Source: Aigarchaeota archaeon
Lineage (GTDB): Archaea > Thermoproteota > Nitrososphaeria_A > Caldarchaeales > Calditenuaceae
Assembly: GCA_025059745.1 (NCBI GenBank)
Contig: JANXDH010000004.1
Span: forward strand, 533,646-597,645
Direction of reading: 5' to 3'
Length of the DNA: 64,000 bases
The notes beneath the pieces were generated by a model. That model saw only the letters and a program-made list of their open reading frames with translations, was not told where the DNA came from and ran no database searches. Below are positions 5,698 through 62,210 of this stretch, piece after piece. Position 1 is the first letter of the stretch. Every line of letters begins with the position of its first letter. The translations under genes and the position numbers were made by a program.

Positions 5698-6595
5698 TTA
5701 GACCGAGCGCCTCTCTTGTCATTCTTACCAGCTCGGAGGGCCTCTGAGCGACTCTCACACCCGACCCTGACAGCCTCTTAATCTTGGACGCCGCGTCCCC
5801 CACACCCATCGAGATGATAGCGCCCGCGTGCCCCATCCTCTTACCCGGGGGTGCCGAGGTGCCCGCGATGAAGGCCAGAACCGGCTTATTGTAGTTAGTC
5901 CTCCTTATGTAATCAGCGGCCCTCTCCTCGGCATCTCCCCCGATCTCCCCTATCAGGATGACGCATGAGGTCTCATCATCGCCCCTGAACATGTCCAACA
6001 GCTGTACAAATTGAGTCCCCACCACGGGGTCTCCACCGATACCGACTGCGGTGCTCTGCCCTATCTTGGCGTTGGTCAGATTGAGCGCGACCTCGTATGT
6101 CAATGTGCCGCTTCGAGAGATTATGCCAACCGGCCCTTCACTGAACACGTTGGCCGGCATGATGCCGACCTTCGACTTGTTGGGTGATATCAGCCCTGGA
6201 CAATTGGGCCCAATTATGTTCACACCCTTGTAGCGGGCGTACTTCACGAACGCCATGGTCTCATGTATCGGAATGCCCTCGGTGATCACCACGACGGTCT
6301 TTATGCCGCTATCGATCGCCTCATAGACCGCATCAGGAGCGGACTTAGCGGGCACGAATATCGCGGAGGTATTGATCTCAGGGTGCCTCTCCACCGCTTC
6401 TCGTACGGAGTCATAGACCGGTACCCCATCAACCCTCTCGCCTCCCTTATTAGGTGTGACGCCCGCTAACACCTTGGTACCGTACCTCAACATCGCAGAG
6501 GTGTGAAACCTGCCCTCCTTTCCAGTTACACCCTGGACGACGACTCTCGTCTCTCTGTTAACTAATATAGCCAAACCCGACTTGGGTGATCTCAA
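5690..6595 (-). CDS. sucD: succinyl-CoA synthetase alpha subunit (CoA-binding, SucD family)
   Basis: VVVQGVTGKEGRFHTSAMLRYGTKVLAGVTPNKGG, the phospho-His region GHAGAII, and citrate-lyase/SucD-like C-terminus. 301 aa. No adjacent sucC is present. Confidence 0.9.
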   Translation of the reverse strand: MRSPKSGLAILVNRETRVVVQGVTGKEGRFHTSAMLRYGTKVLAGVTPNKGGERVDGVPVYDSVREAVERHPEINTSAIFVPAKSAPDAVYEAIDSGIKTVVVITEGIPIHETMAFVKYARYKGVNIIGPNCPGLISPNKSKVGIMPANVFSEGPVGIISRSGTLTYEVALNLTNAKIGQSTAVGIGGDPVVGTQFVQLLDMFRGDDETSCVILIGEIGGDAEERAADYIRRTNYNKPVLAFIAGTSAPPGKRMGHAGAIISMGVGDAASKIKRLSGSGVRVAQRPSELVRMTREALGLTT

Positions 6596-6690
6596 CTCAC
6601 ATATTAACCATATCTAACACCTCTAGGCGCCATCCGATAGAGGCGGTCGTTCATTCAGGAAAATTTTAATAATGGTCATTTACTGTTATA

Positions 6691-7017
6691 TTGGGTACTG
6701 TAGAAGTAATGGATGGTAGTTGCCCTGTCTGTGGGCTCCCGAAGAACATCTGCGTCTGCGCTACTATATCGTACGAGGCACAGCGGATAAAGGTGAAGCT
6801 GGAGACGAAGAAATGGAACCGTCCCACGACAGTCATAGAGGGACTGACGTCCTCACCGATAGACCTCTACCAGCTTGCTACCGACCTGAAGACGAAATGT
6901 GCGTGCGGTGGCGCGGTGAAGAACGGCCTCATCATCCTTCAGGGTGATCAACGCGAGAAGGTCGTGAAGACGCTCATAGAGATGGGACTGTCGAGGGAGA
7001 ACATCGAGGTAATCTGA
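6691..7017 (+). CDS. sui1: translation initiation factor aSUI1 (eIF1 homolog) with N-terminal zinc-ribbon
   Basis: CPVCGLPKNICVC Zn knuckle followed by the SUI1 domain (KKWNRPTTVIEGL...KTKCACGGAVKNG...ILQGDQR). Confidence 0.85.
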   Translation: MGTVEVMDGSCPVCGLPKNICVCATISYEAQRIKVKLETKKWNRPTTVIEGLTSSPIDLYQLATDLKTKCACGGAVKNGLIILQGDQREKVVKTLIEMGLSRENIEVI

Positions 7018-7030
7018 TCCCAGACACACA

Positions 7031-11628: not shown

Positions 11629-12777
11629 GTGAGTAGATGGAATAGTTTGGGGGTAGAACCCGAGACGTACGCGGAGAAGCTCGGTAGTATAAAGAGCGCC
11701 GTTTACAGTCTGTTCCACGTGTCTGATGTGAGATACGAGGCCGGAGTCCTCACCTTCATCACGGAGAAGGCCGACATCAAGGACGCCTTCAAGAGGTTGT
11801 ACAACGATCTAAAGCCGATGGGTTACGTCCCGACCGCTGAGAGAATGGGAGACTCGGTGGTCATAAAGATCTACCCCTTCAAACCCCCCAGGATAGGCAG
11901 CGCGAGGCTACCGTTGATACTAATGGCGGTCACCTGTACGACGGTCTTCATCGACGGGTTGCTCAGGTCGAACGGGATCTACAAGTACGCCTCAACGGTC
12001 TATGAAAACTTCAACGCTTGGTACTACGCAGCCCTCTTCACGGTCTCGCTGTTGGCTATCATAGGCATTCACGAACTAGGGCACAAGATAGTCGCTCGTA
12101 TGAGGAAGATCGACTCGACTCTCCCCTACTTCATACCCGGGATACCGGGGGAGATACCAACTTTCGGAGCTGTTATACTCCAGAAGGGTCCCTTGGTCAA
12201 CAAGGACGACCTCTTCGACCTCGGTATAAGTGGTCCCATCGCTGGGTTCGCCGTCAGTCTCCTCGTCCTCTTCTTAGCTTACTCAACGGCAATCTGGGTG
12301 CCCTATGGGACAGCAGAGGACTTGTACAGGTGGATGCAGAGCGAGGGAGGGATCTTCCTACCGAGGCCGTTCATCTTCGACATCTTCGAGAGCTTCTTGG
12401 GGAGGGACTCAGAGGTGCCCCTGATCGCCTTCACACCCTACGCGTTCCCGGCATGGCTGGGCATGCTGGTGACGGGACTGAACATGGTGCCCATATGGCA
12501 ACTGGACGGGGGCAGGGTAATGAGGGCTCTGGTCAGCAGGAGAGTTCACATGATATTGTCGTACGTGGGCGCCGTCTTCTTGTTCATCACTGGTTACGTT
12601 CTGATGGCGTTACTGCTCCTGTTACTTATGCGGAACACCATGGATCTGCAACCGCTCGATACGGTCTCCTCGCTATCCCTATCGAGGAAGCTGATCTTTC
12701 TGGGTGGACTCGTGATGCTCGCGGTGACCTTCGTAGCCCTCCCCAGCCCCTTCATTCCTCAATTAAGGGGTCAGTGA
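11629..12777 (+). CDS. site-2 protease family (M50) membrane zinc metalloprotease
   Basis: HELGH zinc-binding motif inside a TM helix and multiple hydrophobic segments. 382 aa. Confidence 0.8.
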   Translation: MSRWNSLGVEPETYAEKLGSIKSAVYSLFHVSDVRYEAGVLTFITEKADIKDAFKRLYNDLKPMGYVPTAERMGDSVVIKIYPFKPPRIGSARLPLILMAVTCTTVFIDGLLRSNGIYKYASTVYENFNAWYYAALFTVSLLAIIGIHELGHKIVARMRKIDSTLPYFIPGIPGEIPTFGAVILQKGPLVNKDDLFDLGISGPIAGFAVSLLVLFLAYSTAIWVPYGTAEDLYRWMQSEGGIFLPRPFIFDIFESFLGRDSEVPLIAFTPYAFPAWLGMLVTGLNMVPIWQLDGGRVMRALVSRRVHMILSYVGAVFLFITGYVLMALLLLLLMRNTMDLQPLDTVSSLSLSRKLIFLGGLVMLAVTFVALPSPFIPQLRGQ

Positions 12778-13759
12778 CGTAACCGTGCGGAATCAAGCAG
12801 ACTGAGAGACCCTTACCGTGCAGACGAGTGATGTAGTGAACTGAGTCCTGGATCGTATCGAACGATCGAAAACCGCAAACTCCCTCCACGTAGCTCTTCG
12901 GGAGCGGTGTCACCATGCCCACGTGATAGTTCTCCCTTACCCCTTTTACGCTCGTGGCCATCAGATAGTGATAACTCGACTCATCGTCCACTTCAGAGGT
13001 CAACAAGTACCTCAACAACTTCTCTGAACCGATGCCCTTCTCGCACTCAGTCACGAGTATGACCGTACCGGAGCCCTTTATGACACGGGAGGATAAGAGG
13101 AGCGCATTGATGCTCAGCATGAGGGTCTGGTCGAGCGGCTCACCGCCAACTGAAGCTATGACCGCGTCGTAACGTTTAGGTAACCTAGCGACGTAGGACC
13201 CGCCACCTGTCTCATCGGACGAGACGGACAGGAGTGATCCGTCCAGTCCGAAGGAGAGGCCCACGGTCGTCACCTCTAAGGAGGACGCCCACCTTGATAA
13301 CGCATCGGGCCATACGCCGACCATGCCCGAGACAGCCGTAATGAACCTCTGAGACGAACTCGAGAGACCACTGAGGGGTGTAGGTAAAGTCGGCACAATG
13401 AACGCCACACTCTTGATGTCTTTCAACAGATCACCTCTCTTTACGAAGTCATCCACCAGGTGGACCCCTTCCCTATCACTGAAGTCACGGATAATTACAT
13501 CACCCATTACCTCACCGACCCTCCAAGTACTGAGGAGGATCGGCCTCGTCTCGAGTTGAGATATGAGGTCCGCGTACGCCCTCAGTGGTAGGTAATCTAC
13601 GACAACCGCATCAGTACCCCTTGTCCTCTCCCGGACCTCTTCGACTACGTTCGAACTGATGTTCTCAGACCTTACTTGGGGTATCGCCGTGTAGACCTCA
13701 GCCTCATCGGGTAGATCGAACGAGTACTCGAATTTCCCCCTCCTCAACCAGTACTCCAA
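12752..13759 (-). CDS. hypothetical protein; N-terminus resembles LarA/DUF2088 (lactate racemase N-terminal) domain
   Basis: N-terminal pattern (YG..E..LPDEA.V...P) recalls DUF2088, but the protein is only 335 aa. Lies 14 bp downstream of gnd on the same strand. Weak assignment. Confidence 0.3.
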   Translation of the reverse strand: MEYWLRRGKFEYSFDLPDEAEVYTAIPQVRSENISSNVVEEVRERTRGTDAVVVDYLPLRAYADLISQLETRPILLSTWRVGEVMGDVIIRDFSDREGVHLVDDFVKRGDLLKDIKSVAFIVPTLPTPLSGLSSSSQRFITAVSGMVGVWPDALSRWASSLEVTTVGLSFGLDGSLLSVSSDETGGGSYVARLPKRYDAVIASVGGEPLDQTLMLSINALLLSSRVIKGSGTVILVTECEKGIGSEKLLRYLLTSEVDDESSYHYLMATSVKGVRENYHVGMVTPLPKSYVEGVCGFRSFDTIQDSVHYITRLHGKGLSVCLIPHGYVTDPLIEE

Positions 13760-13772
13760 CCATAGCTCGACC

Positions 13773-15170
13773 TCATGTCAGCCTCCAAGTGGAGTGGAAC
13801 TCGCCCTCTCTATCGGATCTCCTGAACCCGTGGGCCCCGAACAGGTCACGTATCGCCTGTATCAAGTTAGTAGGTAGACGCTCTGAGGTCATCATGAGGA
13901 AGTAGTTGAACGCCGATGAAATAACGGGTATCGGTAGGCCTGAGGACGCGGAGAGCCTGATGAACTCCTTCCATCTCTCCACCCTCTCGAGGGTACCCTT
14001 CGTGAAGATGGGTGTGCTGAAGAGGTACCTGCTACTCGATTCTTCCGACTCATATGCCGTCTGCACTATCTTAGACCGGATTATACAACCCGAGCGCCAG
14101 ACCCTTAACGCCCTGCGGGGCTCCGTCTGGTAACCGAGACTCTCGATGGCCGCGACCAGCATGGACAGGCCCTGCGAGTAACTCATCACGTACGTGCCGT
14201 AGAGCGCGGCCTCCGAGAGTCTTTCAGCGAGTAACCTTCCGATCCTCTCATATGTCAATCTAGGAAACGACTTACTCAGCGCCAACCTGTCGCCGCGTGA
14301 CGTCGATGCAATCCTCTCAGTTACTGCCGCGTCGATGGAGGGGGCCGGAACTCCGAGCCTCATGGCCTCCTCGCTCGCCCACATCCCCGTGCCCTTCTGT
14401 TCCGCCTCATCGACCACCTTCTCCACCAACTCGACCTCACTACCCTCCTCGCGGAACCTCAAGACCTGCGACGCGGCCTCTAGAAGGTAAGATCCGAGCT
14501 CACTACCGTTCCACTCGGAGAAGCAGTCAGCGATCTGACCGTTGCTGAGACCCCCCACCCTCCTCAGGAACTGATAGACCTCAGCTATGCCGCCGAGCAT
14601 GGCGTACTCTATGCCGTTGTGTACTATCTTCACGAAGTGCCCGGCTCCACCCCTCCCAAAGTACCCCTCGCATGAATCATCGTTATACTTGGCCGCGATC
14701 GACCGTAGGAGCTCCCTCACCTCGGCGTACCCAGTCTCATCTCCACCCACCATGATAGAAGGTCCTTTGAGCGCGCCCTCAACTCCACCACTCACACCGA
14801 CCCCTAGGAACCTGATACCCTCACGTAGGAGCTCCTCGTAACGTCTCTCGGTATCTCTGAAGTGGGAGTTCCCGAAATCGAGCACTATATCGCCCCTCGA
14901 GAGCAGTTTCTTCAGCTCAGCTACGTAGTCGTCTACGGGTTTGCCAGCCTTGACCATTAAGATTACGAGCCTTGGAGGACTCAGGGAATCTACGAACTCT
15001 CTAAGCTCCCTGTAGCCCCTCACCCTCAAACTCCCGCACTTCTCCTTAAGGAAACTCTCGACCTTCTCGTAAGTCCGGTTATAGAGCGAGACGGAGTACC
15101 CTCGACTCTCCACGTTGATCACTATGTTCTCCGCCATGGGACCCAGTCCTATGATGCCGACCTCTCCCAA
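13773..15170 (-). CDS. gnd: 6-phosphogluconate dehydrogenase, decarboxylating
   Basis: N-terminal IGLGPMAENIVIN Rossmann motif, 6PGDH catalytic domain, and C-terminal FGAHGFRRSD..GEFHSTW tail typical of Gnd. 465 aa. Confidence 0.9.
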   Translation of the reverse strand: MGEVGIIGLGPMAENIVINVESRGYSVSLYNRTYEKVESFLKEKCGSLRVRGYRELREFVDSLSPPRLVILMVKAGKPVDDYVAELKKLLSRGDIVLDFGNSHFRDTERRYEELLREGIRFLGVGVSGGVEGALKGPSIMVGGDETGYAEVRELLRSIAAKYNDDSCEGYFGRGGAGHFVKIVHNGIEYAMLGGIAEVYQFLRRVGGLSNGQIADCFSEWNGSELGSYLLEAASQVLRFREEGSEVELVEKVVDEAEQKGTGMWASEEAMRLGVPAPSIDAAVTERIASTSRGDRLALSKSFPRLTYERIGRLLAERLSEAALYGTYVMSYSQGLSMLVAAIESLGYQTEPRRALRVWRSGCIIRSKIVQTAYESEESSSRYLFSTPIFTKGTLERVERWKEFIRLSASSGLPIPVISSAFNYFLMMTSERLPTNLIQAIRDLFGAHGFRRSDREGEFHSTWRLT

Positions 15171-15283: not shown

Positions 15284-15661
15284 ATGCGTTACGTCAGGGC
15301 TAGGGACTTGGAGGAGAGAACCAAGCGGATGGTCGATGCCCTCGGTCTGAACCATATAGACCCCGAGAGGGTGATCTGCATCAGGAGTTACGGATCTCGG
15401 TCCAAGAGGACGCTCGCTAGGGTCCATGCACCCTCGAAGGCCGTACTCGCGGCCCTGAACATGAAGCCCGTCTACGTGATAGAGTTCATTGAAGAAGCAT
15501 GCAGGAGACTGACCGATGAGCAGCTGGAGGACGTTATTCTCCACGAACTGCTTCACATCCCCAAGTCGTTCAGTGGAGGCCTGCGTGGCCACGACGCTAG
15601 GTTCTCCTCGGAGTTAGAGAGTTACAGGAAGTTCCTCAGTAGAGCTCGCAGATACCGATGA
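15284..15661 (+). CDS. small predicted zinc metallopeptidase (HExxH; SprT/WLM-like minimal domain)
   Basis: HELLH motif in a 125-aa protein. The 3' end overlaps the convergent cyclase gene by 26 bp. Confidence 0.45.
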   Translation: MRYVRARDLEERTKRMVDALGLNHIDPERVICIRSYGSRSKRTLARVHAPSKAVLAALNMKPVYVIEFIEEACRRLTDEQLEDVILHELLHIPKSFSGGLRGHDARFSSELESYRKFLSRARRYR

Positions 15662-16304
15662 CCGTGCAAGGTGTGCTGTCAACCCCCTCTATTAATAGCG
15701 GAGCCACTATGACCAGATCGTAATAGTTATCCTTCCCCGCGAGCGCCATGTCCTCTATGATCAGGAGGTCGGGGGCCGACAGGAGAACTCTATGTGACCT
15801 CCATCCCTCATCTCTGTGACGCGGAGATCCTATGCTTATAGCGTCTGTGCCCACGCATCTGAGACGCGGATAGAACTTGATCAGGTACTTCGCGCCCTCC
15901 TCGGATATACACGGTCCATCGTTCGCGAACTTGACCGGATCGCTCACCGCCATGCGCTCGATACCAGTGCGTATCATGACTAAGCCCGACCTGGATATGG
16001 CCTGCTCATGCGCCTCGAGATCTCTTCTCGTTATCAGCTCCCCAGGTCCCTTGGGTACGTCTATAATGACTCCCCTCTTGAAGACTAACTCCTCCGGTCT
16101 GAAGTCCGAGATCGCTCGCCCCTCACCGTAGAAGTGTCTCTGGGCGTCCACGTGTGTTCCAACGTGGTTACCCAACATCATAGCGTAGCTGTTGCTCGTA
16201 TCCCCTGAGGAGATCTGACGCAACGGTGAGACCCTCAGAGGCATCATTCCGGGGTACACCGGAGTCCTCTCAGATAGGGTCTTTGATAATAGTGCCGCCT
16301 TCAA
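15636..16304 (-). CDS. cyclase-family metal-dependent hydrolase (kynurenine formamidase-like)
   Basis: HVGTHVDAQRHF motif (HxGTHxDxPxH of the PF04199 cyclase family). 222 aa. Confidence 0.8.
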   Translation of the reverse strand: MKAALLSKTLSERTPVYPGMMPLRVSPLRQISSGDTSNSYAMMLGNHVGTHVDAQRHFYGEGRAISDFRPEELVFKRGVIIDVPKGPGELITRRDLEAHEQAISRSGLVMIRTGIERMAVSDPVKFANDGPCISEEGAKYLIKFYPRLRCVGTDAISIGSPRHRDEGWRSHRVLLSAPDLLIIEDMALAGKDNYYDLVIVAPLLIEGVDSTPCTVIGICELY

Positions 16305-16370: not shown

Positions 16371-16384
16371 AGGGTTTATATCTC
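16371..16384 (+). promoter_or_regulatory. TATA box (agggtttatatctc) for the Fgd-like gene
   Basis: Centred ~27 nt upstream of the GTG at 16403. Confidence 0.45.
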
Positions 16385-16402
16385 TAGGCCCCGGCCTTTG
16401 AG

Positions 16403-17449
16403 GTGAGTATGGTGACCAGATCGCTCCAGTTGGGGTACTGGGCCGCGCAAGAGCAGTACTCGCCGGACACTCTCTTGAAGTTTGCGATACGAGCGGAGAT
16501 AATGGGCTTCGACATCATAGTGACGAGCGATCACTTCCACCCATGGAGCGACACCGGTGGCCAAAGCGGTCATACGTGGATCTGGTTGGCGAGCGTGGCC
16601 GAGCGCACGAAGAAGGTCGAGGTCGGCACCGCGGTCACCACTCCCCTCTTCAGGTATCATCCCGCCATAGTGGCGCAGGCGTTCTCCACGCTCGACCACC
16701 TATATCCTGGGAGGATCTTCCTAACAGTCGGTACTGGACACGCGATGAATGAGGTGCCCTTAGGTTACTCCTGGCCGGGGTACAGAGAGAAGGTGGGTAG
16801 GTTGAAGGAGGCGATAGAGGTGATCAAACTCCTCTGGGAGGGTGACTTCGTGACGTATGAGGGCGAGTACTATAGGCTGAACACCGCAAAGCTCTACACG
16901 AAGCCCAAGAGCAAGATCAGATTATACGTCGCGACGTCCAATGAGAGAGTAGCCGAGATAGCAGGGACGCACACGGACGGGATCTTGACGAACCCGAGGG
17001 GACTAGAGAACCTTAAGGAGATAATCGAGTCGATGGAGAAGGCGGCCAGGCGCGCCGGGAGAGACCCGTCTACTCTGAGCAAGTGCATGGAGTTCAAGGT
17101 CTCCTACGACCTCGACTACCAGAGGGCACTAAGGGCGGCCAGTTTCTGGGCGCCGACCGCTATACCGAGGGAGAAGAGGGAGAAGGTCGCCGACCCAAGG
17201 GTTCTGGAATCTATGGTGACGGAGAAAGAGATAGAGAAGATAAAGCGGACCTGGCTGATAACGACGGACTCCGACGACATATTCAAGGCACTGGGGGATT
17301 TCCTGAAGCTAGGGTTCGATAGAGTATACATACATAGCGCCTCCCCCAACGAGGAGCGATTTCTGAACCTCCTAGGCAGGGAGATACTGCCTTGGATGAG
17401 GGAGTACTGGGAGGAGCTGAGGGCTCCTATCAGATCTGCGGCGGAGTGA
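16403..17449 (+). CDS. fgd: F420-dependent glucose-6-phosphate dehydrogenase family oxidoreductase (luciferase-like monooxygenase class, Fgd-like)
   Basis: Block-by-block similarity to actinobacterial Fgd1: LGYWAAQEQYSP, VTSDHFHPW, FRYHPAIVAQAF, LTVGTGHAMNE, GEYYRL, FWAP, WLITTDSDD. 348 aa. Confidence 0.7.
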   Translation: MSMVTRSLQLGYWAAQEQYSPDTLLKFAIRAEIMGFDIIVTSDHFHPWSDTGGQSGHTWIWLASVAERTKKVEVGTAVTTPLFRYHPAIVAQAFSTLDHLYPGRIFLTVGTGHAMNEVPLGYSWPGYREKVGRLKEAIEVIKLLWEGDFVTYEGEYYRLNTAKLYTKPKSKIRLYVATSNERVAEIAGTHTDGILTNPRGLENLKEIIESMEKAARRAGRDPSTLSKCMEFKVSYDLDYQRALRAASFWAPTAIPREKREKVADPRVLESMVTEKEIEKIKRTWLITTDSDDIFKALGDFLKLGFDRVYIHSASPNEERFLNLLGREILPWMREYWEELRAPIRSAAE

Positions 17450-17450
17450 T

Positions 17451-18608
17451 CTAAGACGTTACGGAGTGGTGCCACCTCAGGATGTACTCCGGTAACTTCA
17501 GTCCCCTCTCCTGTAGTTTGTAGACCAGTAGGAGCGGTATGGGGCTGGAGGCGAACGCGGCCTTAAGATAGAAGTCATTGGGACCACCATCGAAGGAGTT
17601 GGATGGTATGTAGTACGAATAGTCCGAAAGGGCCTCTATCGTTGATCCCTTGGTACCGACTATTGATGCGACGACGCCCCCCATCTTCTTGAAGTTCTTA
17701 CACCACGCGGCAACGACCTCTATCTCTCCGCTCTGAGATATGACCAATAAGAGATCTCCAGCCCTCGGTGAGGGCGTGCTCGCGTCCCCTGCGACATAGA
17801 CCTGGTCCCCTATGGCCCTCTTCACGTGTCCCAACCTCACTGCGGTCATTCTGGCTACCTCCCTGCTGCTCCCTAAACCGGCAAGGAAGCAGACGTGCCT
17901 TTTCTCGAGCATATCGACGACGGTCTTCATGAAGTCCGATCTCACGACGTCCTCCACCACCTTCGTCACCTCCGAGGTGAAAGACGCTATGTACTCACGG
18001 ATCTGACTGGCCGGCGCGTCCCTGTTCAAGGTCTCGGCCAACCCATAGAGGAACAGGAGACCTCCGAGAATGAAGACGTCCTCTAATATACCAACTGATC
18101 TGAACTCGACGGTATCGATCTTGTCTTCACTGAGCTCCCTCCCCTTCAGGACCATGAGTGTGCCGTACTTGTAACCGAGTTTACCTAGCGGAGACTCCGG
18201 GTCACTCGTTATCACGTCTATCTTATGGTCCTTATAGTTCTCGGACTTGGCGATCAATAACGCGAGCTTTTGAGCGTCGATCAGCGGTAGGAGAGACTTC
18301 CCGCTACCGGAGAGTATTAGGAGCGAGATCTGCCCGAATCGTCTCCTCAACGTGGGCGCGGCCTCGTCTATATGCCTCGCGGGGAAGCCTATGTCACCCC
18401 TATCGATGACCACCTTACCGTTCTTCATCTTAGCTAGCTCGCTACAGAATATGCTCAGGGCACCCTTCGTCCTCCCCTCAGCGCTTGGTACTATAACGCC
18501 GGAACTCCTGATATCGGTATAGATGTCCTCGGTCGCCTTGTTGTCCAGTTCGTACAGATTGTTTACGATTTTGTTGATGAAACCAATCGAGGCGGAAATT
18601 TCACCCAT
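17451..18608 (-). CDS. double SIS-domain sugar-phosphate isomerase/deaminase (GlmS-C / AgaS / PGI-PMI-like)
   Basis: The C-terminal half matches the SIS/6-phospho-3-hexuloisomerase pattern (GLGSSREVARMTAVRLGH..DLLLVISQSGEIEVV..). The N-terminal half carries a second SIS-like core (ISLLILSGSGKS...VITSDPESPLGKLG). 385 aa. Confidence 0.6.
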   Translation of the reverse strand: MGEISASIGFINKIVNNLYELDNKATEDIYTDIRSSGVIVPSAEGRTKGALSIFCSELAKMKNGKVVIDRGDIGFPARHIDEAAPTLRRRFGQISLLILSGSGKSLLPLIDAQKLALLIAKSENYKDHKIDVITSDPESPLGKLGYKYGTLMVLKGRELSEDKIDTVEFRSVGILEDVFILGGLLFLYGLAETLNRDAPASQIREYIASFTSEVTKVVEDVVRSDFMKTVVDMLEKRHVCFLAGLGSSREVARMTAVRLGHVKRAIGDQVYVAGDASTPSPRAGDLLLVISQSGEIEVVAAWCKNFKKMGGVVASIVGTKGSTIEALSDYSYYIPSNSFDGGPNDFYLKAAFASSPIPLLLVYKLQERGLKLPEYILRWHHSVTS

Positions 18609-28451: not shown

Positions 28452-28910
28452 ATGAGGGTAGGAGAGTTAGCGCCCAACTTCTCTCTGCCAGATCACGAAA
28501 ACAGAGTCCGCTCCCTCAGAGACCTCTTGGAGAACAAGAAGTTCCTTATCCTCTACTTCTATCCCAAGGACGATACCCCGGGTTGCACCAAGGAGGCGTG
28601 CGGCTTTAGAGACCTACTGAATGAGATCCGTGGGATGAACGGCGACGTGGTGGGGATAAGCGTGGATGACGCGCGCTCCCATCAGTCGTTCTCTAAGAAG
28701 TACTCTCTGGGCTTCACCTTATTAACGGACAGCAAGGGCGAGGTCGCTCGACTCTTCGACAGCTTCAGCGAGGAGAAGGGCAGGTGTCTCAGAAAGACAT
28801 TCGTGATCGATGAGAAGGGTAGAGTGATTGGTGCGTTCGAGGAGATTAAGGCAGAGGATCACCCGCTGAGGGCCTTGGAGTACGTCAAGGAAAAGATCGG
28901 TAGAGGCTAG
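28452..28910 (+). CDS. bcp: peroxiredoxin, Bcp type
   Basis: YFYPKDDTPGCTKEACGFRD peroxidatic and resolving Cys motif. 152 aa. Confidence 0.9.
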   Translation: MRVGELAPNFSLPDHENRVRSLRDLLENKKFLILYFYPKDDTPGCTKEACGFRDLLNEIRGMNGDVVGISVDDARSHQSFSKKYSLGFTLLTDSKGEVARLFDSFSEEKGRCLRKTFVIDEKGRVIGAFEEIKAEDHPLRALEYVKEKIGRG

Positions 28911-30484
28911 GGATGGGCGCGCGGATGTTCGACGATCCCCAAGTAGATCTCCCCCCTCTGTGATCTGTACGCAGGTACCCCGATCGCCACGGTCATCATG
29001 TTCTCCTTATCCGCGGCATGAGGCGAGAAGAACTCTCTGACGTCGTCATCGTAAAACGTCAGGCCCGTAGCGCCCAGACCCAGTGCGTAAGCCGCGAGGT
29101 ACGTCCTCCCAGCGCGGACCCCAGCCTCTAACTGGCACGCCCTGTAACCCCTCTCTCCGAGCATCTTCACCACCTCTCTCACGTCAGCCATGAAGAAGAG
29201 CACCGCGCTCGCGTCGCCCCCGAGGTCCTGCTCCAGACACAGGTGCCTCGAGACCGTCCTAAACCTCCCCCTCTTCAAGCCAACCAGACTGTCTCTGACC
29301 CGATCGTAGAAGTATGCGCCCTCCTCTAGTCCGTCTACCTCGTTTACTATTAAATAGATATCGAGTAACGAGAGGGTTGGCTTTATGGTGAAATCGGAGT
29401 TCAGGCTCGATGAAGAACAGCGCAATATCGTCTCTAGGTCTCCCCTTTTTATTGGCCTGCGGCTGAACCGCCTCGTGGAGCCCCTCTGGAGTATCACCTC
29501 GTGGAGAGGTCTATCGTTCTCTGATGGTATCTCGACCCTCATATCCACCAGTCTATCGTCGGTGATCTTCGACCTAGCGTACTCAGCGACGCGGGCCCTC
29601 CACTCTCTGAGAGCTTCTGCACTCTGTAATGCGGAGGTCTCGAAGGCCTTGACTATCGCCGGGTAACTCAACTCTCTGGGTGAGTACGGTAGCCTCGGGA
29701 GATCCAGACTATCCAGCTGTTCGATGGCCCTAGGTACGGTAGCTGCACCCCCATTGACCTTCATATCAAGGACGGCGATCGCTGACTCCTCCATCCCGCC
29801 TATCCCCAATAAGTCGTTGACCCTCTTGTCAACGAACCCTACAAATATCTTAGACTCGATACCTAACGCGTTGGCTACGGAGATCATGTTCGCAAGGATG
29901 ACCCCACCATCCCAGAAGGAGTGGCGATAAGACCTCTCTCCGTACTTCCACGCGTTGCGCCAGGGAACCGAGGTGAGAATTACGCTCGCCCCACACCCCT
30001 TCACCGAGTCGTCCAACGTCGCCTCCCTCATCCACCATCTGAAGTCTCCCCTCCTCAGTACTGTCAGCACGAACTCTCCCGGGTCAAAATGGTAGACCCC
30101 TTGCTCCAAACCCACCACGTTATGACTGACCACGTAGAGCTCTGATTGATAGAGTGCGCCAGTGCACGGTGCTGCCCTGAAGTAGAACCTCTCGCCGAAG
30201 TACTCCCTGACTCTAGTTATCCCGTAGGAGAAGAATAGCAGCCCCGAGAGTGAACTGACGTCCAGACGTTCCATGACCTCAGATCTGCCCGTTATCGATC
30301 TCAGGGCCGAGCTCTTTGGTAGTCTCAACTCCTTGGGCAGGTGAACCCTCTCACCGTCTAGGTAGACCTTGAATGGGTAGGGCTTGTTGCTCCAGTCCAA
30401 CCTGTGGCCTGAACTCCTAATGCTGATGTAGCTGTGTTTGGTTGACTCGTGGTAAGTTAATGCGTAGCTCTCCTCCCCCCTCAT
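28907..30484 (-). CDS. tandem SagB-type (nitroreductase-superfamily) dehydrogenase domain protein
   Basis: N-terminal YHESTKH motif (SagB-type dehydrogenase signature). Two nitroreductase-like halves. 525 aa. Confidence 0.6.
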   Translation of the reverse strand: MRGEESYALTYHESTKHSYISIRSSGHRLDWSNKPYPFKVYLDGERVHLPKELRLPKSSALRSITGRSEVMERLDVSSLSGLLFFSYGITRVREYFGERFYFRAAPCTGALYQSELYVVSHNVVGLEQGVYHFDPGEFVLTVLRRGDFRWWMREATLDDSVKGCGASVILTSVPWRNAWKYGERSYRHSFWDGGVILANMISVANALGIESKIFVGFVDKRVNDLLGIGGMEESAIAVLDMKVNGGAATVPRAIEQLDSLDLPRLPYSPRELSYPAIVKAFETSALQSAEALREWRARVAEYARSKITDDRLVDMRVEIPSENDRPLHEVILQRGSTRRFSRRPIKRGDLETILRCSSSSLNSDFTIKPTLSLLDIYLIVNEVDGLEEGAYFYDRVRDSLVGLKRGRFRTVSRHLCLEQDLGGDASAVLFFMADVREVVKMLGERGYRACQLEAGVRAGRTYLAAYALGLGATGLTFYDDDVREFFSPHAADKENMMTVAIGVPAYRSQRGEIYLGIVEHPRAHP

Positions 30485-51629: not shown

Positions 51630-54260
51630 TTACTCCGGTTGGTGGGGCCTGTGCCTCAAGTAGATCAAGGTCATCAAGGCCGCCACGATAGATATTAAGA
51701 GGACGCTGTACGGCCCGAGGGGGACAGTACGCCTCTGTGGTGAGGTCGTTGGGTCTATTGAGGATTCGCTCCTCAAACCCCCGAAGGTGATTGTCAAGGA
51801 CTTACCGTAGGGCGAGACTGGACCGAGACGGACGACACCGTCCCAGCTCGTTACACCCTCTGACTCTACGAACCCGTCCTCTCTGCTTACGGTCACAGAG
51901 AGCATGGGGGCGGGGAGATGGAACAGGTCCTTCAGAGTGAACTCTATGTAGTAGAGCCTCACCCCCACCCTTACCTCCCCCGAAGCCGCATCGACCGATC
52001 TCTGGTCCGTGACGTCGGCCCCTCTCCATATCGACCTCTGGACAGTCCATCTGCCTTCCCTCAACCATATTATACTCCCAGAATGATGAGATACGAATTC
52101 CCCGCCAGGTCCTATGAGTTCAAAGGTCACCGAACCCGAGGTGCCTGTGCGCGGCTCCTCGATAAGCAGGGACAGGACCTCCTTGACGTAACGAGCGGTT
52201 AGCGATAACGGGCGCGTGACCACCGCTGAGACGTTCACGAGCTCTGTGATCAGGTCACCGCTCCAGTGCCTGAAGGAGAGACGCTCCCGATCGCTCAAGT
52301 AGATGAACTCCGGCGCACTGAACGACACCTCTGAGCCCTGAGTGACCCAGAACCTCTGGGACTTTAGGGGTTCGGGATAGTTTATCGATATTAGGTGCTC
52401 TAGGGTCCAGATTGCTCGTACCCTCATCGGTCTATCCACTCTCACCTCGACCACCCTCTCGACAGAGGTGACGTCACCCTCCCACTTCTTGAAGATCGCC
52501 CGAGTAGAGTCCGATAGGTAACTGATCTGATCGGCAGAGACGATGGCCCTTGACCCCATGAGGTACCATCCCTCACCGCTGACTGATCCGACGCCGGATA
52601 TTAGGTCGAGGTAGTACTCCACGTCGTACCTCGCGATAGCGGTGATGGGCCTGACGACCCTGACCTCCAAGACCGTAGACCTGAGGTTGAGGCCACCCTC
52701 CCAAGACCTGAATACGGCTCTGGTCATGTTATCCCACTCAATATATCGAGGGTACTCGATCGTCAGCGTATCTCCCCTATCGATCCAGACGGTTTTATTG
52801 AGGTTGCCGTGAGTCGACCAGAGGGAGACTAGGTACTGCGTCGTCCACTCGGCGTACAGTCTCTTCGGCCCGTCGATCAACAGTCGCACCCTCGGTCCTT
52901 TCATCGCGTAATCTCCGGTGAATCCCGAGAGCTGGATCCTGGTCATGTTCATAAGGTCCACCGTAGACGGTTCTACCCACACCTCGGCTACTCCCCCCTC
53001 ATCGTACCAACCAGCACCGCGGGTGCTGCCATGTGCGGTGAATACGTCAACCTTGAATTGCCTCACCCACGTCGCGGTGACCTCGACAGGCCCTCTGACG
53101 ACGATCCTCAGTGTGTTTATCGTGGAGCCGAATGTACCGACCCACCTATCGAACCTTAACCTAGAGACCTCGCTTATCGGGACTACGCTGGGAACCTCTA
53201 AGTCTATAATGCTCTCCCTATCGAACCAATCAGTTAAGTCCCTCGTGAAGGTCCCGGCCACCCTAACCAGATATTGGGTCCTATAGTCTTGAACGACCTC
53301 CATGTGGTATCTCGGTCTGATTACTATCTCAGGAGAACTCGAGACGGCCCTTCCACCGATCGACCATCCGATGAACCTCATCCTAGTTGAACTATCGACA
53401 CCTACGATCTCATCACTCCTAAGAGTGATGGACTGACCAGGCTCGACGAGGAGTACTTCTAAAGGTATGAGGCCACTACCATCCACCCTGCGATAGATCT
53501 TGACGGAGAGCTTGATCGGGTACCCCTGTACGTCGAGCAGATAGAACATCGGTATCTCGGCTGGCAGGGTGACCCTCGACGGTACGTTCTCAAAGACGTT
53601 CGTAGCCATCCAGCGGTAAGCTACGGCCAGTGAATAGAGCTCAAGCGTGGACGGCCTGCTACCAGGGACCACGTACCTACACATTATGCTCCTGCAGTTC
53701 GTGGTGTGACCTATGCCGAGCGCGTGGGCGAATTCGTGGGCCGCCACCACCTTCGTGATCTCCTCATCGCCCCTCGTACACGACAACGAGATAGCTATGG
53801 ACGCGTTCACTATCTCCGTCCCCGCCCTGAAGATGTAGGCGACACCGCAGATACCCGAGCCCAACGTCTCAACGTACCTCATCCTGATGTCTCCCGAAGA
53901 ACCGTTAACGCCGTAGATCAGCACGTTGATCTTGAGCTCCTCCAAGTAGTTGTAACCGAAGAGAGCGGTGAATATCGGTATGGCGGTGATCCACCACCTC
54001 ACGCCCTCCGCCGCCCAGACCGTGTAAGCGTGTTCCTGGTGGGGATAGATGAGAACGTTCAGTTCCCTCTTCCTCCAAGAGCCCAGCAGATCTATCACGC
54101 CATCCTCTTGTCTCTGTTCGGTGAGGTTCGCGGGAGGACTCTCGTAGGTGATCGCGTGTGAGGACGATTGAAAGTCGTGGCCACCGTCAACAGGATGAAG
54201 AATAAGTATCACGAAAACAATTAAAATGAGCGTGATCGGTACCGCTCTCAAACACCTCAA
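51630..54260 (-). CDS. secreted, C-terminally membrane-anchored metzincin-type zinc metalloprotease with ~6 tandem beta-repeat domains
   Basis: N-terminal signal peptide, HEFAHALGIGH (HExxHxxGxxH), then ~65-aa repeats each with F-x2-W-x-G ... GxGWY motifs (InlB B-repeat-like). C-terminal TM helix PLGPYSVLLISIVAALMTLIYL. 876 aa. Confidence 0.65.
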   Translation of the reverse strand: MRCLRAVPITLILIVFVILILHPVDGGHDFQSSSHAITYESPPANLTEQRQEDGVIDLLGSWRKRELNVLIYPHQEHAYTVWAAEGVRWWITAIPIFTALFGYNYLEELKINVLIYGVNGSSGDIRMRYVETLGSGICGVAYIFRAGTEIVNASIAISLSCTRGDEEITKVVAAHEFAHALGIGHTTNCRSIMCRYVVPGSRPSTLELYSLAVAYRWMATNVFENVPSRVTLPAEIPMFYLLDVQGYPIKLSVKIYRRVDGSGLIPLEVLLVEPGQSITLRSDEIVGVDSSTRMRFIGWSIGGRAVSSSPEIVIRPRYHMEVVQDYRTQYLVRVAGTFTRDLTDWFDRESIIDLEVPSVVPISEVSRLRFDRWVGTFGSTINTLRIVVRGPVEVTATWVRQFKVDVFTAHGSTRGAGWYDEGGVAEVWVEPSTVDLMNMTRIQLSGFTGDYAMKGPRVRLLIDGPKRLYAEWTTQYLVSLWSTHGNLNKTVWIDRGDTLTIEYPRYIEWDNMTRAVFRSWEGGLNLRSTVLEVRVVRPITAIARYDVEYYLDLISGVGSVSGEGWYLMGSRAIVSADQISYLSDSTRAIFKKWEGDVTSVERVVEVRVDRPMRVRAIWTLEHLISINYPEPLKSQRFWVTQGSEVSFSAPEFIYLSDRERLSFRHWSGDLITELVNVSAVVTRPLSLTARYVKEVLSLLIEEPRTGTSGSVTFELIGPGGEFVSHHSGSIIWLREGRWTVQRSIWRGADVTDQRSVDAASGEVRVGVRLYYIEFTLKDLFHLPAPMLSVTVSREDGFVESEGVTSWDGVVRLGPVSPYGKSLTITFGGLRSESSIDPTTSPQRRTVPLGPYSVLLISIVAALMTLIYLRHRPHQPE

Positions 54261-54313: not shown

Positions 54314-55327
54314 GTGGACGCACCAAAGCTCGCGGTCTATGCGAGCCACTCGGCTCTACAGATAATCACCGGTGGAAGGAGAGAGGGGCTAAACGTCACG
54401 CTCTTTGGACCGGCGGAGAGGCTGACTTTCTATCGGAGGTTTAGGGCCCTGCAAATGAGTACGCTGGAGTGCACCAACGAGGACTGCATAGAGAAGTTAA
54501 ACTCTCTGAGTGACCACGTGGTCGTTCCAAACGGTAGTCTGGTGGAGTACGTCGGTGCAAAGAACGTCCTAGAGTTGAAGACGCCCCTCATCGGCTCGAA
54601 GGGTCTCTTGTGGATCGAGAGCCGCTGGAACCGGAAGATGAACCTCCTGATGGACGCCGGTCTACCGGTCCCCAAGTGGTTCTCGAGACCCGAGGAGGTA
54701 GACAGGTTGGTCATAGTGAAGTTGCCTGGCGCGAAGGGCGGGCGGGGATACATACTGACGGACTCACCCGGAGAGATAAACGAGTCCCTGAGGGAGTACG
54801 TGAGAAAGGGTATCATAAGCGACGCATCGGAGGCCTACATACAGGAGTACGTCGTCGGTATCCCGGTCTACGCCCACTACTTCATGAGTCCCATAATGAA
54901 CAGATTAGAGATAACGGGATTCGATGTGAGATACGAGACGAACGTCGACGGCCTCAGGCGTCTGAGCCACAGGAGAGCCGCTGAGATCAAACCTAGCTTC
55001 GTCGTAGGGGGCAACTTTCCGGTATATTTACGTGAGAGCCTCATAGAAACGTACATAGAGTGCGGTGAGAGGTTCGTCGAGGCCACCGGAAGGTATCTGG
55101 GGAAACCCGTCGTGGGCCCGTTCTGCCTCGAGTCCGTGGTGACCGAGGACCTGACGCCGGTCTTCTTCGAGTTCTCAGGGAGGATAGTCGCAGGTACCAA
55201 CGTATACATGGACGGGAGTCCTTACCTCGAGTTTTACTGGGGTGAGAGGATGAACGTGGGCCAGAGGATCGCGAGGGAGGTGAGGCTCGCGGCAGAACAG
55301 GGTCGCATCGATGAGGTGGTGACCTGA
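54314..55327 (+). CDS. purP: 5-formaminoimidazole-4-carboxamide ribonucleotide (FAICAR) synthetase PurP (ATP-grasp)
   Basis: Colinear with archaeal PurP: YASHSALQI, VVPNGSLVEYVG, GSKGLLWIESRW, KLPGAKGGRGY, YETNVDGL, YLRESL, VGPFCLE, AGTNVYMDGSPY, GQRIAREV. 337 aa. Confidence 0.85.
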   Translation: MDAPKLAVYASHSALQIITGGRREGLNVTLFGPAERLTFYRRFRALQMSTLECTNEDCIEKLNSLSDHVVVPNGSLVEYVGAKNVLELKTPLIGSKGLLWIESRWNRKMNLLMDAGLPVPKWFSRPEEVDRLVIVKLPGAKGGRGYILTDSPGEINESLREYVRKGIISDASEAYIQEYVVGIPVYAHYFMSPIMNRLEITGFDVRYETNVDGLRRLSHRRAAEIKPSFVVGGNFPVYLRESLIETYIECGERFVEATGRYLGKPVVGPFCLESVVTEDLTPVFFEFSGRIVAGTNVYMDGSPYLEFYWGERMNVGQRIAREVRLAAEQGRIDEVVT

Positions 55328-55454: not shown

Positions 55455-56384
55455 GTGAGAGAGACGGTGGACGAGTGTCTTGTATTACCGAATTACGCGA
55501 AGATCATCGAGGACGAGGTCCAGGCCGAGCTGTTGGGGAAGGACGCGGTGATAGTGCCCAATCGCAGCATGGCCGTCTATGTAGGATACGACAGGATAGA
55601 GGAGAGGCTTAGGGTCCCTGTATTCGGTAACAAGAAGATGCTGAGGTGGGAGGAGCGAGTCGGCGGGAAGAACTACTACGCGCTGCTCGACTCCGCAGGC
55701 ATTCGAAGGCCGAGGGTGATGAGGATCGAGGAGGTCGACGGTCCAGTGATATTGAAGGTCCAGGAGGCCATGAGGGAGCAGGAGAGGGCCTTCATAATAG
55801 CCTCTGACAGAGAGGACCTAGAGCGTAAGATAGAGTCTATGAGGTCTAGGAACCTCATCAGCGAGGAGACGCTGAGACGCTCGGTCATCGAGGAGCTCGT
55901 ACTTGGTGCACACTTCAACATAAATTACTTCTACAGCGTCGTCAGAAGGAGGTTGGAGATAGTAAGCATAGACCGGCGCATACAGTCTAACTTGGACGGA
56001 CTCCTCCACCTTCCAGCGAGGGATCAGCTCGACCTCCGGGCACCCGTCCGCATGATCGAGGTTGGTCACGTCCCCGTCAGCCTCAGGGAGAGCCTCTTGG
56101 AGGAGGCGATGGAGATCGGTGAGAGGTTTGTGGATGCCACACGCAGATTAGAACCGCCCGGCATAATAGGTCCCTTCACCCTACAGGTGATGGTGTCGCC
56201 CGATCTGAAGATGATCGTCTATGACGTCGCGACTAGGATAGGCGGTGGTACCAACGCGCAGATGGGGATAGGCGGACAGTACTCTAAGCTCTTCCTTAGA
56301 AAGGCGGTCTCTATGGGCCGTAGGATATGTATTGAGTTGAGGGAGGCTCTAGAGTCGAGCGCTTTGACCTCTGTTACAAGTTAA
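55455..56384 (+). CDS. purP: PurP paralog (FAICAR synthetase family); annotated from the first in-frame canonical start, which truncates the conserved N-terminus (possible frameshift/pseudogene)
   Basis: Same motif set as the upstream paralog (VVPNRSMAVYVG, GNKKMLRWEER, YESNLDGL, SLRESL, IGPFTLQ, GGTNAQMGIGGQY). Conserved IASHSALDVFDGAKDEGF is encoded in-frame upstream (55341-55454) without an ATG/GTG/TTG. Confidence 0.6.
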   Translation: MRETVDECLVLPNYAKIIEDEVQAELLGKDAVIVPNRSMAVYVGYDRIEERLRVPVFGNKKMLRWEERVGGKNYYALLDSAGIRRPRVMRIEEVDGPVILKVQEAMREQERAFIIASDREDLERKIESMRSRNLISEETLRRSVIEELVLGAHFNINYFYSVVRRRLEIVSIDRRIQSNLDGLLHLPARDQLDLRAPVRMIEVGHVPVSLRESLLEEAMEIGERFVDATRRLEPPGIIGPFTLQVMVSPDLKMIVYDVATRIGGGTNAQMGIGGQYSKLFLRKAVSMGRRICIELREALESSALTSVTS

Positions 56385-57861: not shown

Positions 57862-58914
57862 TTGGGTAAGTTAAAGGCCGCAGTTCTCGGTGCGACTGGC
57901 ATGGTCGGCCAGATCTATCTCCAGCTCCTCTCAAGACATCCGTGGTTCGAGCTCTCAGCGGTCACAGGCAAGTCTAACGTGGGCAAGAAGCTGGTAGAAG
58001 CCTACAGGGGTAAGGGGTGGGTACCTCCTGAGTACGCCGACATCGAGGTGTTGCCCACAGACCCATCGAAGGTCGACGCTGACGTGGTCTTCAGCAGCCT
58101 ACCGACACCTGTAGCGAGGGAGGTCGAACCTAAGTTCGCGGAGGCCGGTCTTCCAGTGGTGAGCGATGCGTCCGCGTACAGGATGGCACCAGACGTACCG
58201 CTCATAGTCCCGGAGATAAATGAGGATCACCTGGCATTGATAGAGTTACAGAAGAGGAACAGGCGATGGGACGGTTACATAGTGACCACTCCGAACTGCA
58301 CTACTGTCGGACTCGTCATGCCATTGAAAGCGCTACACGACGCGTTCACTCTCAGGTACGTCAACGCGGTCTCCATGCAAGCCGTATCCGGCGCAGGGTA
58401 CGCAGGTGTACCATCGATAGCCATAATGGGGAACATCATACCGTATATAGACGGTGAGGAGAGAAAGGTCATCGAGGAGCCGAGGAAGATACTGGGCACT
58501 CTAAAGGACGGCAACATCATACCCGCTGAGGTGTCTATCGACGCTACCTGCACGAGGGTGCCGACTCTTTACGGACACCTGATATCCGTTACCGCGGAGC
58601 TTGAGCGCGACTTCACTATCGATCGTGTCGTAGACTCTTTCAGTTCGTTCAAGGGTAAGCCCCAGTTACTCGAGCTGCCGACCGCACCATCAAGACCGAT
58701 CGTGGTTCTAACTGAGGATGATAGACCCCAACCGAGGATTGACGTAGAAGTCGGTGACGTAAAGGGGATGAGCGTCTCGGTAGGCAGGATAAGGAAGGGC
58801 GTGAACGAGAGAACGCTCCTGTTCGTCACTTTGAGTCATAACCTGATAAGGGGCGCTGCCGGTATAGCGATACTGACTGCTGAACTCTTAAAAGTCGGTG
58901 GGTGGTTGGATTAG
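57862..58914 (+). CDS. asd: aspartate-semialdehyde dehydrogenase
   Basis: AAVLGATGMVGQ NAD(P) motif, active-site Cys region (TTPNCTTVGLV), and C-terminal dimerisation domain. 350 aa. Confidence 0.9.
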   Translation: MGKLKAAVLGATGMVGQIYLQLLSRHPWFELSAVTGKSNVGKKLVEAYRGKGWVPPEYADIEVLPTDPSKVDADVVFSSLPTPVAREVEPKFAEAGLPVVSDASAYRMAPDVPLIVPEINEDHLALIELQKRNRRWDGYIVTTPNCTTVGLVMPLKALHDAFTLRYVNAVSMQAVSGAGYAGVPSIAIMGNIIPYIDGEERKVIEEPRKILGTLKDGNIIPAEVSIDATCTRVPTLYGHLISVTAELERDFTIDRVVDSFSSFKGKPQLLELPTAPSRPIVVLTEDDRPQPRIDVEVGDVKGMSVSVGRIRKGVNERTLLFVTLSHNLIRGAAGIAILTAELLKVGGWLD

Positions 58915-62203: not shown

Positions 62204-62210
62204 GAGGTGT

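Follow-up and report, generated by a model that had tools for sequence, protein, structure and literature searches.

An Fgd-like F420-type dehydrogenase with an altered active-site signature, encoded near a pentose phosphate pathway gene in Aigarchaeota

The gene and its immediate surroundings

The 64,000-nucleotide stretch of contig JANXDH010000004.1 analyzed here (GenBank assembly GCA_025059745.1, from an Aigarchaeota archaeon; hereafter the window) carries, at 16403..17449 on the forward strand, an open reading frame of 348 amino acids whose product is an FGD-like, TIM-barrel dehydrogenase of the F420 type within the luciferase-like monooxygenase (LLM) class. An earlier note, made from the sequence alone, had read this gene as an archaeal counterpart of Fgd, the actinobacterial F420-dependent glucose-6-phosphate (G6P) dehydrogenase, an interpretation that our analysis partly supports. 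On balance we regard the protein as probably an F420-dependent glucose- or sugar-6-phosphate dehydrogenase that would open an archaeal oxidative branch of the pentose phosphate pathway, a reading that draws on homology, on conserved residues and on the genes that accompany it.

The frame and its translation were confirmed, and the sequence blocks that had been quoted for it are all present: LGYWAAQEQYSP at residues 10-21, VTSDHFHPW at 40-48, FRYHPAIVAQAF at 83-94, GTGHAMNE at 110-117, GEYYRL at 154-159, FWAP at 248-251 and WLITTDSDD at 284-292. The GTG at 16403, which gives the longest frame, is probably not the true start. This is more probably ATG 16409 or GTG 16412, since the identical protein in NCBI, from the Aigarchaeota metagenome-assembled genome (MAG) GCA_033581295.1, starts at GTG 16412 and is 345 amino acids long; its name there is "TIGR03557 family F420-dependent LLM class oxidoreductase". 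What appears to be a Shine-Dalgarno-like sequence, GAGGTGA (16400..16406, forward strand), lies just 5' of these two codons. The gene is transcribed divergently from a cyclase-family hydrolase gene, and the spacer between them measures 98 bp to 16403, as had been reported, or 107 bp if the start is at 16412. Within the range 16371-16384, where the earlier note had placed a TATA box, the TATA-like element TTTATATC can be read at 16375..16382 on the forward strand, 26 nt upstream of ATG 16409, and forms a putative promoter of this divergent intergenic region; the upstream regions of orthologues in other genomes have AT-rich TATA-like elements at a similar distance.

The divergent partner (15636..16304, reverse strand) encodes a PF04199 cyclase-family metal-dependent hydrolase (Pfam 86.5 bits), with the metal motif HxGTHxDxxxH in its translation and with a "metal-dependent hydrolase" (8hmo/1r61) and kynurenine formamidase as its closest entries in the PDB. 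On the same strand, 1.2 kb upstream of the FGD-like gene, 13773..15170 encodes Gnd, a decarboxylating NADP-dependent 6-phosphogluconate dehydrogenase of 465 amino acids that passes two equivalog cutoffs (NF006765, 506.9 against 413; TIGR00873, 481.1 against 426.7), so that a bona fide enzyme of the oxidative pentose phosphate pathway lies close by. Downstream, a tandem-SIS phosphosugar isomerase-like protein of 385 amino acids (SIS-385; 17451..18608, reverse strand) is encoded convergently, with a single base between the two stop codons. Profile matches identify the C-terminal half of SIS-385 as SIS/PHI-like, its AF2 model (pLDDT 87.5) contains two SIS domains, and the top Foldseek matches, at TM 0.5-0.6, are modules of hexose-6-phosphate ketol-isomerases, namely PH0510, the GlmS isomerase domain, glucosamine-6-phosphate (GlcN6P) deaminase and a putative tagatose-6-phosphate isomerase. 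The modeled fold makes SIS-385 a candidate hexose-6-phosphate isomerase, interconverting fructose 6-phosphate (F6P) and G6P.

Family membership and active-site residues

The resemblance of the window protein to Fgd1 is real and far beyond chance. In a phmmer search against all PDB sequences, Fgd1 of Mycobacterium tuberculosis (3b4y) is matched with E 3.3e-78 and 266 bits in an alignment that spans residues 7-334 with only three short gaps, and FGD1 of R. jostii (Rh-FGD1, 5lxe) with 266 bits and E 3e-78; the BLASTP identities are 37.3% and 37.6%, respectively. The best NCBIfam match is TIGR03554, the F420-dependent G6P dehydrogenase model (286.6 bits), and the subfamily cutoff of TIGR03557, "F420_G6P_family", is passed with 235 bits against 210.4 over residues 10-333, while the PF00296 luciferase-like monooxygenase superfamily is matched with 183.5 bits against a gathering cutoff of 27.9. 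The comparison with hidden Markov models proposed in the earlier note thus did not return a different LLM subfamily with a pocket incompatible with phosphosugars. The protein is also, as had been claimed, much closer to Fgd than to Mer, which scores about 93 bits. The archaeal F420-dependent secondary alcohol dehydrogenase Adf (1rhc), on the other hand, reaches 251.7 bits and 37.6% identity. An AF2 model of the window protein, built on 35 sequences of its clade (mean pLDDT 91.8), is a (beta/alpha)8 TIM barrel whose top structural matches are all LLM F420 enzymes, with TM 0.88-0.92 and an rmsd of 2.0 Å against 3b4y and TM 0.86-0.90 against Adf; fold comparison was tried as a means of telling FGD from Adf and set aside, the two ranges being indistinguishable. 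Because bit scores, identities and TM-scores are nearly equal for Adf and Fgd1, the conserved blocks are diagnostic of F420 dehydrogenases as a branch of the luciferase-like family, and not of Fgd itself. The block-by-block match to Fgd1 that had been described is genuine as similarity, with Adf equally similar.

The archaeal clade considered here consists of those 72 sequences, out of 107 full-length homologues, that are at least 58% identical to the window protein. They derive from Aigarchaeota/Caldarchaeales, Terraquivivens, Conexivisphaerales and further MAGs of deep Nitrososphaerota, a thermophile-rich set. [quoted passage not shown] The FGD-like protein is not placed inside the FGD/FSD clade, and a grouping of the archaeal clade with Adf appears in 0/200 replicates. 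Many clade members are named F420-dependent G6P dehydrogenase by JGI, and several are carried by soil MAGs labelled "Bathyarchaeota". Others, with 71-74% identity, lie on short contigs (L018 and L028; proteins P0039 and P0040) of MAGs labelled Clostridia, Acidoferrum, Terriglobales or Acidoferrales; since L028 also has an archaeal-type SIS neighbor, these contigs are probably archaeal and were assigned to the wrong bins.

The archaeal clade and the bacterial FGD/FSD clade have 63 invariant positions in common, among them (in Fgd1 numbering, used throughout unless stated) Glu13, His40, Trp44, Thr76, Asn112 and Lys232. The Glu13-His40 dyad and Trp44, whose roles in catalysis have been described together with that of Glu109 as the acid protonating N1 of F420 (PMC12384609), correspond to E17, H44 and W48 of the window protein. 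In Adf, position 76 is Cys and position 232 is Trp. The phosphate-binding triad of canonical FGDs, Lys198/Lys259/Arg283, is not found as such in the window protein: Lys198 is replaced by an invariant Arg199 (72/72; the alignment of this loop is ambiguous by one residue) and Lys259 by an invariant Arg259 (72/72), and at position 256, a turn of the helix ahead of Arg259, all 72 members have Arg or Lys. The Adf residues at 198 and 256 are Ala and Ser. The conserved cluster of three basic residues, carried on the same lid elements, fits the binding of an anionic (phosphate) group, and the clade-specific Arg/Lys256 may compensate for Arg283. Leu252 is Thr/Ser in the clade, position 260 (His260 in Fgd1) is Glu/Asp, and position 177, which is Gly in FGDs, is Ser/Ala; the latter residues are also those of FSDs and of their reconstructed ancestor, whereas Adf has Met (PMC6279831).

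Two ways of deriving the altered residues from those of Fgd1 were abandoned. A compensatory swap from Glu109/His260 to His113/Glu260 was dropped as a family rule because position 260 varies (H, A, S, Q, M, V, T, E) among the bacterial FGD/FSD sequences, and Arg282 of the window protein was rejected as a shifted Arg283 since most clade members have Glu at 282.

Paralogous archaeal clades with 40-50% identity to the window protein keep Glu109, lack the basic cluster and occur in unrelated or sugar-acid gene contexts. One such paralogue (48% identity, Glu109 kept, no basic pocket), at about 6001-7020 of locus L017 and also present at L040 (contig_14655), is surrounded by MR_MLE enolase-superfamily dehydratases, an SGL gluconolactonase-like gene, short-chain dehydrogenases and a zinc alcohol dehydrogenase, a setting that suggests an F420-dependent dehydrogenase of a non-phosphorylated sugar-acid pathway.

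Gene neighborhoods of the clade

Neighborhoods were compared over 21 species-representative loci of the clade. The SIS gene is the immediate convergent neighbor in 15 of the 19 species-level loci where this could be assessed, the cyclase-family gene lies within about 6 kb in 11 of 21, and at least one of SIS, cyclase and Gnd is found near the FGD-like gene in 19 of 21. The most faithful partners of the enzyme are the tandem-SIS isomerase and the cyclase-family hydrolase, and this is new here. Divergent pairing of the cyclase and FGD-like genes is conserved among relatives, and linkage to Gnd occurs in at least three arrangements in several lineages, one of them a same-strand series of FGD-like gene, 110-amino-acid gene, Gnd and LarA_C-like gene.

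A different layout, independent of the preceding ones, is seen in Nitrososphaeraceae MAGs, where an FGD-like gene (43% identity), RpiA, a PF04199 cyclase, a small cupin and a short-type Gnd follow one another on the same strand (L050:9965-13776; also at L052 and L055, and partly at L072). [quoted passage not shown] When synteny was followed in reverse, from the cyclase, its close homologues (about 49% identity), chosen without reference to FGD, were again divergent from an LLM gene. Homologues at 34-36% identity lie in nucleotide-sugar or sugar-acid biosynthesis clusters, and the idea that the hydrolase acts as a lactonase is therefore supported for the close subfamily only; a literature search for a PF04199 lactonase found none. 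Within that subfamily, sequence and context make the hydrolase a concrete candidate for the lactonase that these archaea are reported to lack.

In some clade members (L014:5364-5996 and L032:9333-9959) a gene for an Fe/Mn superoxide dismutase, read in the same direction as the FGD-like gene, lies directly 5' of it and before the divergent cyclase, which hints at a link of F420H2 production to oxidative-stress defense as proposed for mycobacterial Fgd. In the window, the gene directly 3' of Gnd (12752..13759, reverse strand) encodes a divergent LarA_C-like protein of 335 amino acids with a weak match to the LarA C-terminal domain only, about 70 residues being aligned to malate/lactate racemases. 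Two cluster layouts that differ otherwise (L001 and L005) preserve the order Gnd then LarA_C-like gene, and a nickel-pincer epimerase of 2-hydroxyacids or sugar acids is conceivable. Between Gnd and the cyclase, 15284-15661 on the forward strand encodes a zinc-metallopeptidase-like protein of 125 amino acids (SprT-like, "PhageMetallopep", PF18894); this gene and the cyclase gene are convergent, with an overlap of about 26 bp at the 3' end of the latter, and the two adjoin in the L001 and L005 lineages as well.

No further pentose phosphate pathway genes were found elsewhere in the 64-kb window. A run of shikimate-pathway genes at 57862-63503 on the forward strand encodes aspartate-semialdehyde dehydrogenase, a DeoC-family aldolase, DHQS-II, type I dehydroquinase, shikimate dehydrogenase and EPSP synthase, of which the aldolase and DHQS-II (58898-60680) form the archaeal entry of the 6-deoxy-5-ketofructose 1-phosphate (DKFP) type, which is independent of erythrose 4-phosphate. 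The DKFP route was listed by Nunoura et al. as an alternative in an aigarchaeote without the non-oxidative pathway (PMC3082918). Also present are a 525-amino-acid SagB-family (TIGR03605) dehydrogenase of the nitroreductase fold at 28907-30484 on the reverse strand, with a peroxiredoxin gene alongside, and tandem paralogues with DUF1246 and DUF1297 (54314-55327 and 55455-56384, both forward), which are PurP-type ATP-grasp proteins of the FAICAR synthetase family. An open reading frame of 876 amino acids at 51630-54260 on the reverse strand matches nothing in Pfam or NCBIfam at E <= 1e-5.

Weighing the proposed function

Several observations weigh against reading the window protein as an F420-dependent G6P dehydrogenase. 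Its 286.6 bits fall short of the 420-bit equivalog cutoff of TIGR03554, it is equidistant from Adf and Fgd1, and the archaeal clade is sister to the FGD/FSD clade in only 16 of the 200 neighbor-joining replicates. Glu109, present in all 26 bacterial FGD/FSD sequences and in Adf, is His in 72/72 clade members (His113 in the window protein), a change concealed when GTGHAMNE is equated with the GTGEALNE block of Fgd, although the block itself is there. Likewise, the WLITTDSDD block is present, yet just before it a Thr takes the place of Arg283, which in Fgd is an essential phosphate ligand; this position is Thr or Ser in 72/72 members. According to Nguyen et al. the Lys/Lys/Arg triad is strictly conserved in active FGDs, and the R282Q variant of Rh-FGD1 is nearly inactive (PMC5352752); with the triad and its Arg283 lacking, the protein is not an FGD by that published definition. 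In the FGD-like clade of Nitrososphaera, which has the clearest oxidative pentose phosphate operon, no basic residue occurs at 198, 259 or 283, so that residue signatures are an unreliable guide across these archaeal clades. As for the genes, Gnd lies within 10 kb in only 4 of the 21 loci, the SIS gene, being convergent, is not co-transcribed with the FGD-like gene, and no F420 biosynthesis genes were found in the 64-kb window.

Set beside Fgd1 and other FGDs, then, the clade shares the fold (TM about 0.9), about 37% identity over the full length, Glu13-His40, Trp44, Thr76, Asn112 and Lys232, basic residues at or next to 198 and 259, and a genomic association with the pentose phosphate pathway. 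It differs in scoring below the equivalog cutoff, in forming a separate archaeal clade (200/200) of thermophile-rich distribution, in the changes Glu109 to His, Arg283 to Thr/Ser, His260 to Glu/Asp and Leu252 to Thr/Ser, in having Arg for Lys at both retained phosphate ligands, and in the new Arg/Lys256. Judged by its residues, the clade is a subfamily of its own, which departs from the published definition of FGD at two functional sites and whose signature, new here, is a putative His acid together with the Arg199/Arg256/Arg259 cluster.

The rearranged phosphate triad and the changed acid suggest an altered pocket, and so lend some weight to the view that the enzyme is an F420-dependent dehydrogenase acting mainly not on G6P but on another anionic or phosphorylated sugar, whether a hexose- or hexulose-6-phosphate made by the SIS protein, an amino-sugar phosphate or a broad set of substrates as in FSDs. 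The most conserved partner is an uncharacterized two-SIS isomerase, and since the structural neighbors of SIS-385 act on F6P, GlcN6P, tagatose-6-phosphate and hexulose-6-phosphate, its product need not be G6P. Most neighborhoods are without Gnd, and Ser/Ala at 177 resembles the broad-specificity FSDs (PMC6279831). The FSDs of Cryptosporangium and Nocardioides (clade DH3, Mascotti 2018) are alike in the Ser at the equivalent of Gly177, in a likely sugar-phosphate substrate and in a comparable distance from Fgd1, FSD-Cryar also being 37% identical to Mtb-FGD (PMC12384609); however, they keep Glu109 and Lys198/Lys259/Arg283 and group with the bacterial FGDs, and the archaeal clade does neither. 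The characterized FSDs, moreover, still prefer G6P (PMC12384609), and the third linked pathway gene, where present, is always a genuine 6-phosphogluconate dehydrogenase, which needs the product of G6P oxidation. We therefore consider another phosphosugar unlikely as the main substrate, though worth serious consideration.

An Adf-like F420 dehydrogenase acting on a non-phosphorylated alcohol or sugar, with the gene linkage coincidental, appears improbable. Such an enzyme would account for identity, bit score and TM to Adf that are practically equal to those for Fgd1, for the basal DH1 group of Mascotti et al., in which uncharacterized archaeal sequences are placed together with Adf (PMC6279831), and for the archaeal paralogues at 45-50% identity that lack the basic pocket and lie in unrelated or sugar-acid contexts. 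Adf is itself archaeal (Methanoculleus; 1RHC), with the same fold and with the equivalents of its His39 and Trp43 conserved. It keeps its acid as Glu108, however, has no basic residues at 198, 256 and 283, has a narrow hydrophobic pocket formed by Cys76, Met175 and Trp232, and has no phosphosugar gene context. The archaeal clade, in contrast, never groups with Adf in the bootstraps, has Arg199, Arg259 and Arg/Lys256 throughout where Adf has Ala198 and Ser256, shares Thr76 and Lys232 with FGDs and FSDs where Adf has Cys and Trp, and has Ser/Ala in place of the Met that narrows the Adf pocket; its linkage to phosphosugar enzymes persists across orders. At the positions that define the Adf pocket (Cys76, Met175, Cys249 and no basic cluster), the window protein has Thr80, Ser179, Thr252 and Arg199/256/259 in its own and Fgd1 numbering. 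That F420 is not the oxidant at all, the protein being an FMN-binding "revertant" or, physiologically, an F420H2-dependent reductase, is very improbable: the second-best NCBIfam match is the FMN "flavin revert" LLM model TIGR03885, the N1 proton donor Glu109 has become His and the window lacks F420 biosynthesis genes, but the TIGR03885 score (256.5 bits) is far below its cutoff of 398.7 whereas TIGR03557 is passed, Aigarchaeota and other TACK archaea are reported to synthesize F420 (PMC4681859, PMC8498797), the close structural relatives are all F420 enzymes, and the linkage to Gnd fits the oxidative direction.

For the preferred reading, an F420-dependent glucose- or sugar-6-phosphate dehydrogenase, the analysis shows homology, residue conservation, fold and gene linkage; from these we infer which substrate and cofactor the enzyme uses, in which direction it works and what the SIS and cyclase proteins do. 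A cytoplasmic TIM-barrel enzyme would oxidize G6P, or a few hexose-6-phosphates, to the 6-phosphoglucono-lactone using F420. Its Glu17-His44 pair (Glu13-His40 of Fgd1) would take the proton of the C1 hydroxyl while the hydride passes to C5 of F420, His113 would protonate N1 of F420 in the place of Glu109, and Arg199, Arg/Lys256 and Arg259 would hold the sugar phosphate, replacing Lys198/Lys259/Arg283. In the corresponding pathway the tandem-SIS isomerase would convert F6P to G6P; the FGD-like enzyme, on the evidence of homology, pocket charge and context, would convert G6P and F420 to 6-phosphogluconolactone and F420H2; the lactone would be opened to 6-phosphogluconate by the cyclase-family hydrolase, or spontaneously at high temperature; and Gnd, the step well supported by hidden Markov models, would yield ribulose-5-phosphate, CO2 and NADPH. 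A full oxidative branch of this kind in Aigarchaeota and deep Nitrososphaerota, non-canonical in its first three steps, with a two-SIS isomerase, an F420-dependent G6P dehydrogenase with a His acid and a relocated Arg clamp for the phosphate, and a PF04199 6-phosphogluconolactonase, and with the Nitrososphaeraceae operon as a second version, is a tentative proposal, possible but still doubtful. In the haloarchaeal oxidative pentose phosphate pathway, too, a non-canonical G6P dehydrogenase, of the Azf type, feeds a conventional 6-phosphogluconate dehydrogenase. Azf, however, is an NAD-dependent short-chain dehydrogenase, whereas the candidate here would be a TIM-barrel enzyme that depends on F420, accompanied by a candidate isomerase and a candidate lactonase that are non-canonical as well.

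Most archaea are generally considered to have no oxidative pentose phosphate pathway. The surprise of an actinobacterial-type enzyme in an archaeon, which the earlier note had implied, is small, as F420-dependent G6P dehydrogenases have been inferred for archaea before. Beam et al. reported for Calditenuis aerorheumensis a pathway that is complete but for gluconolactonase, a G6P dehydrogenase that uses F420, and the presence of F420 biosynthesis (PMC4681859). An F420-dependent G6P dehydrogenase has been reported for Nitrososphaera gargensis (as reported in PMC3835317), and Gagatemarchaeaceae, with up to 12 copies of K15510, have been inferred to possess one (PMC10640624). A review of F420 lists Fgd for "Thaumarchaeota?" and notes that the roles of F420 in TACK archaea are without experimental evidence, its role in the non-methanogenic ones being called unconfirmed (PMC8498797). 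Given these predictions in genome papers on Aigarchaeota and Thaumarchaeota, the novelty is modest: the prediction of an F420-dependent G6P dehydrogenase was already known, and what is new is the altered active-site signature and the cyclase as a candidate lactonase.

The general picture from genome annotation is left unchanged. If the proposal is correct, Aigarchaeota would have a defined source of F420H2 and ribulose-5-phosphate, and the cyclase-family hydrolase would fill the lactonase gap of the published reconstructions. The catalytic acid and the phosphate clamp of FGD would prove rebuildable with other residues, and the enzyme would offer a naturally thermostable means of regenerating F420 for biocatalysis.

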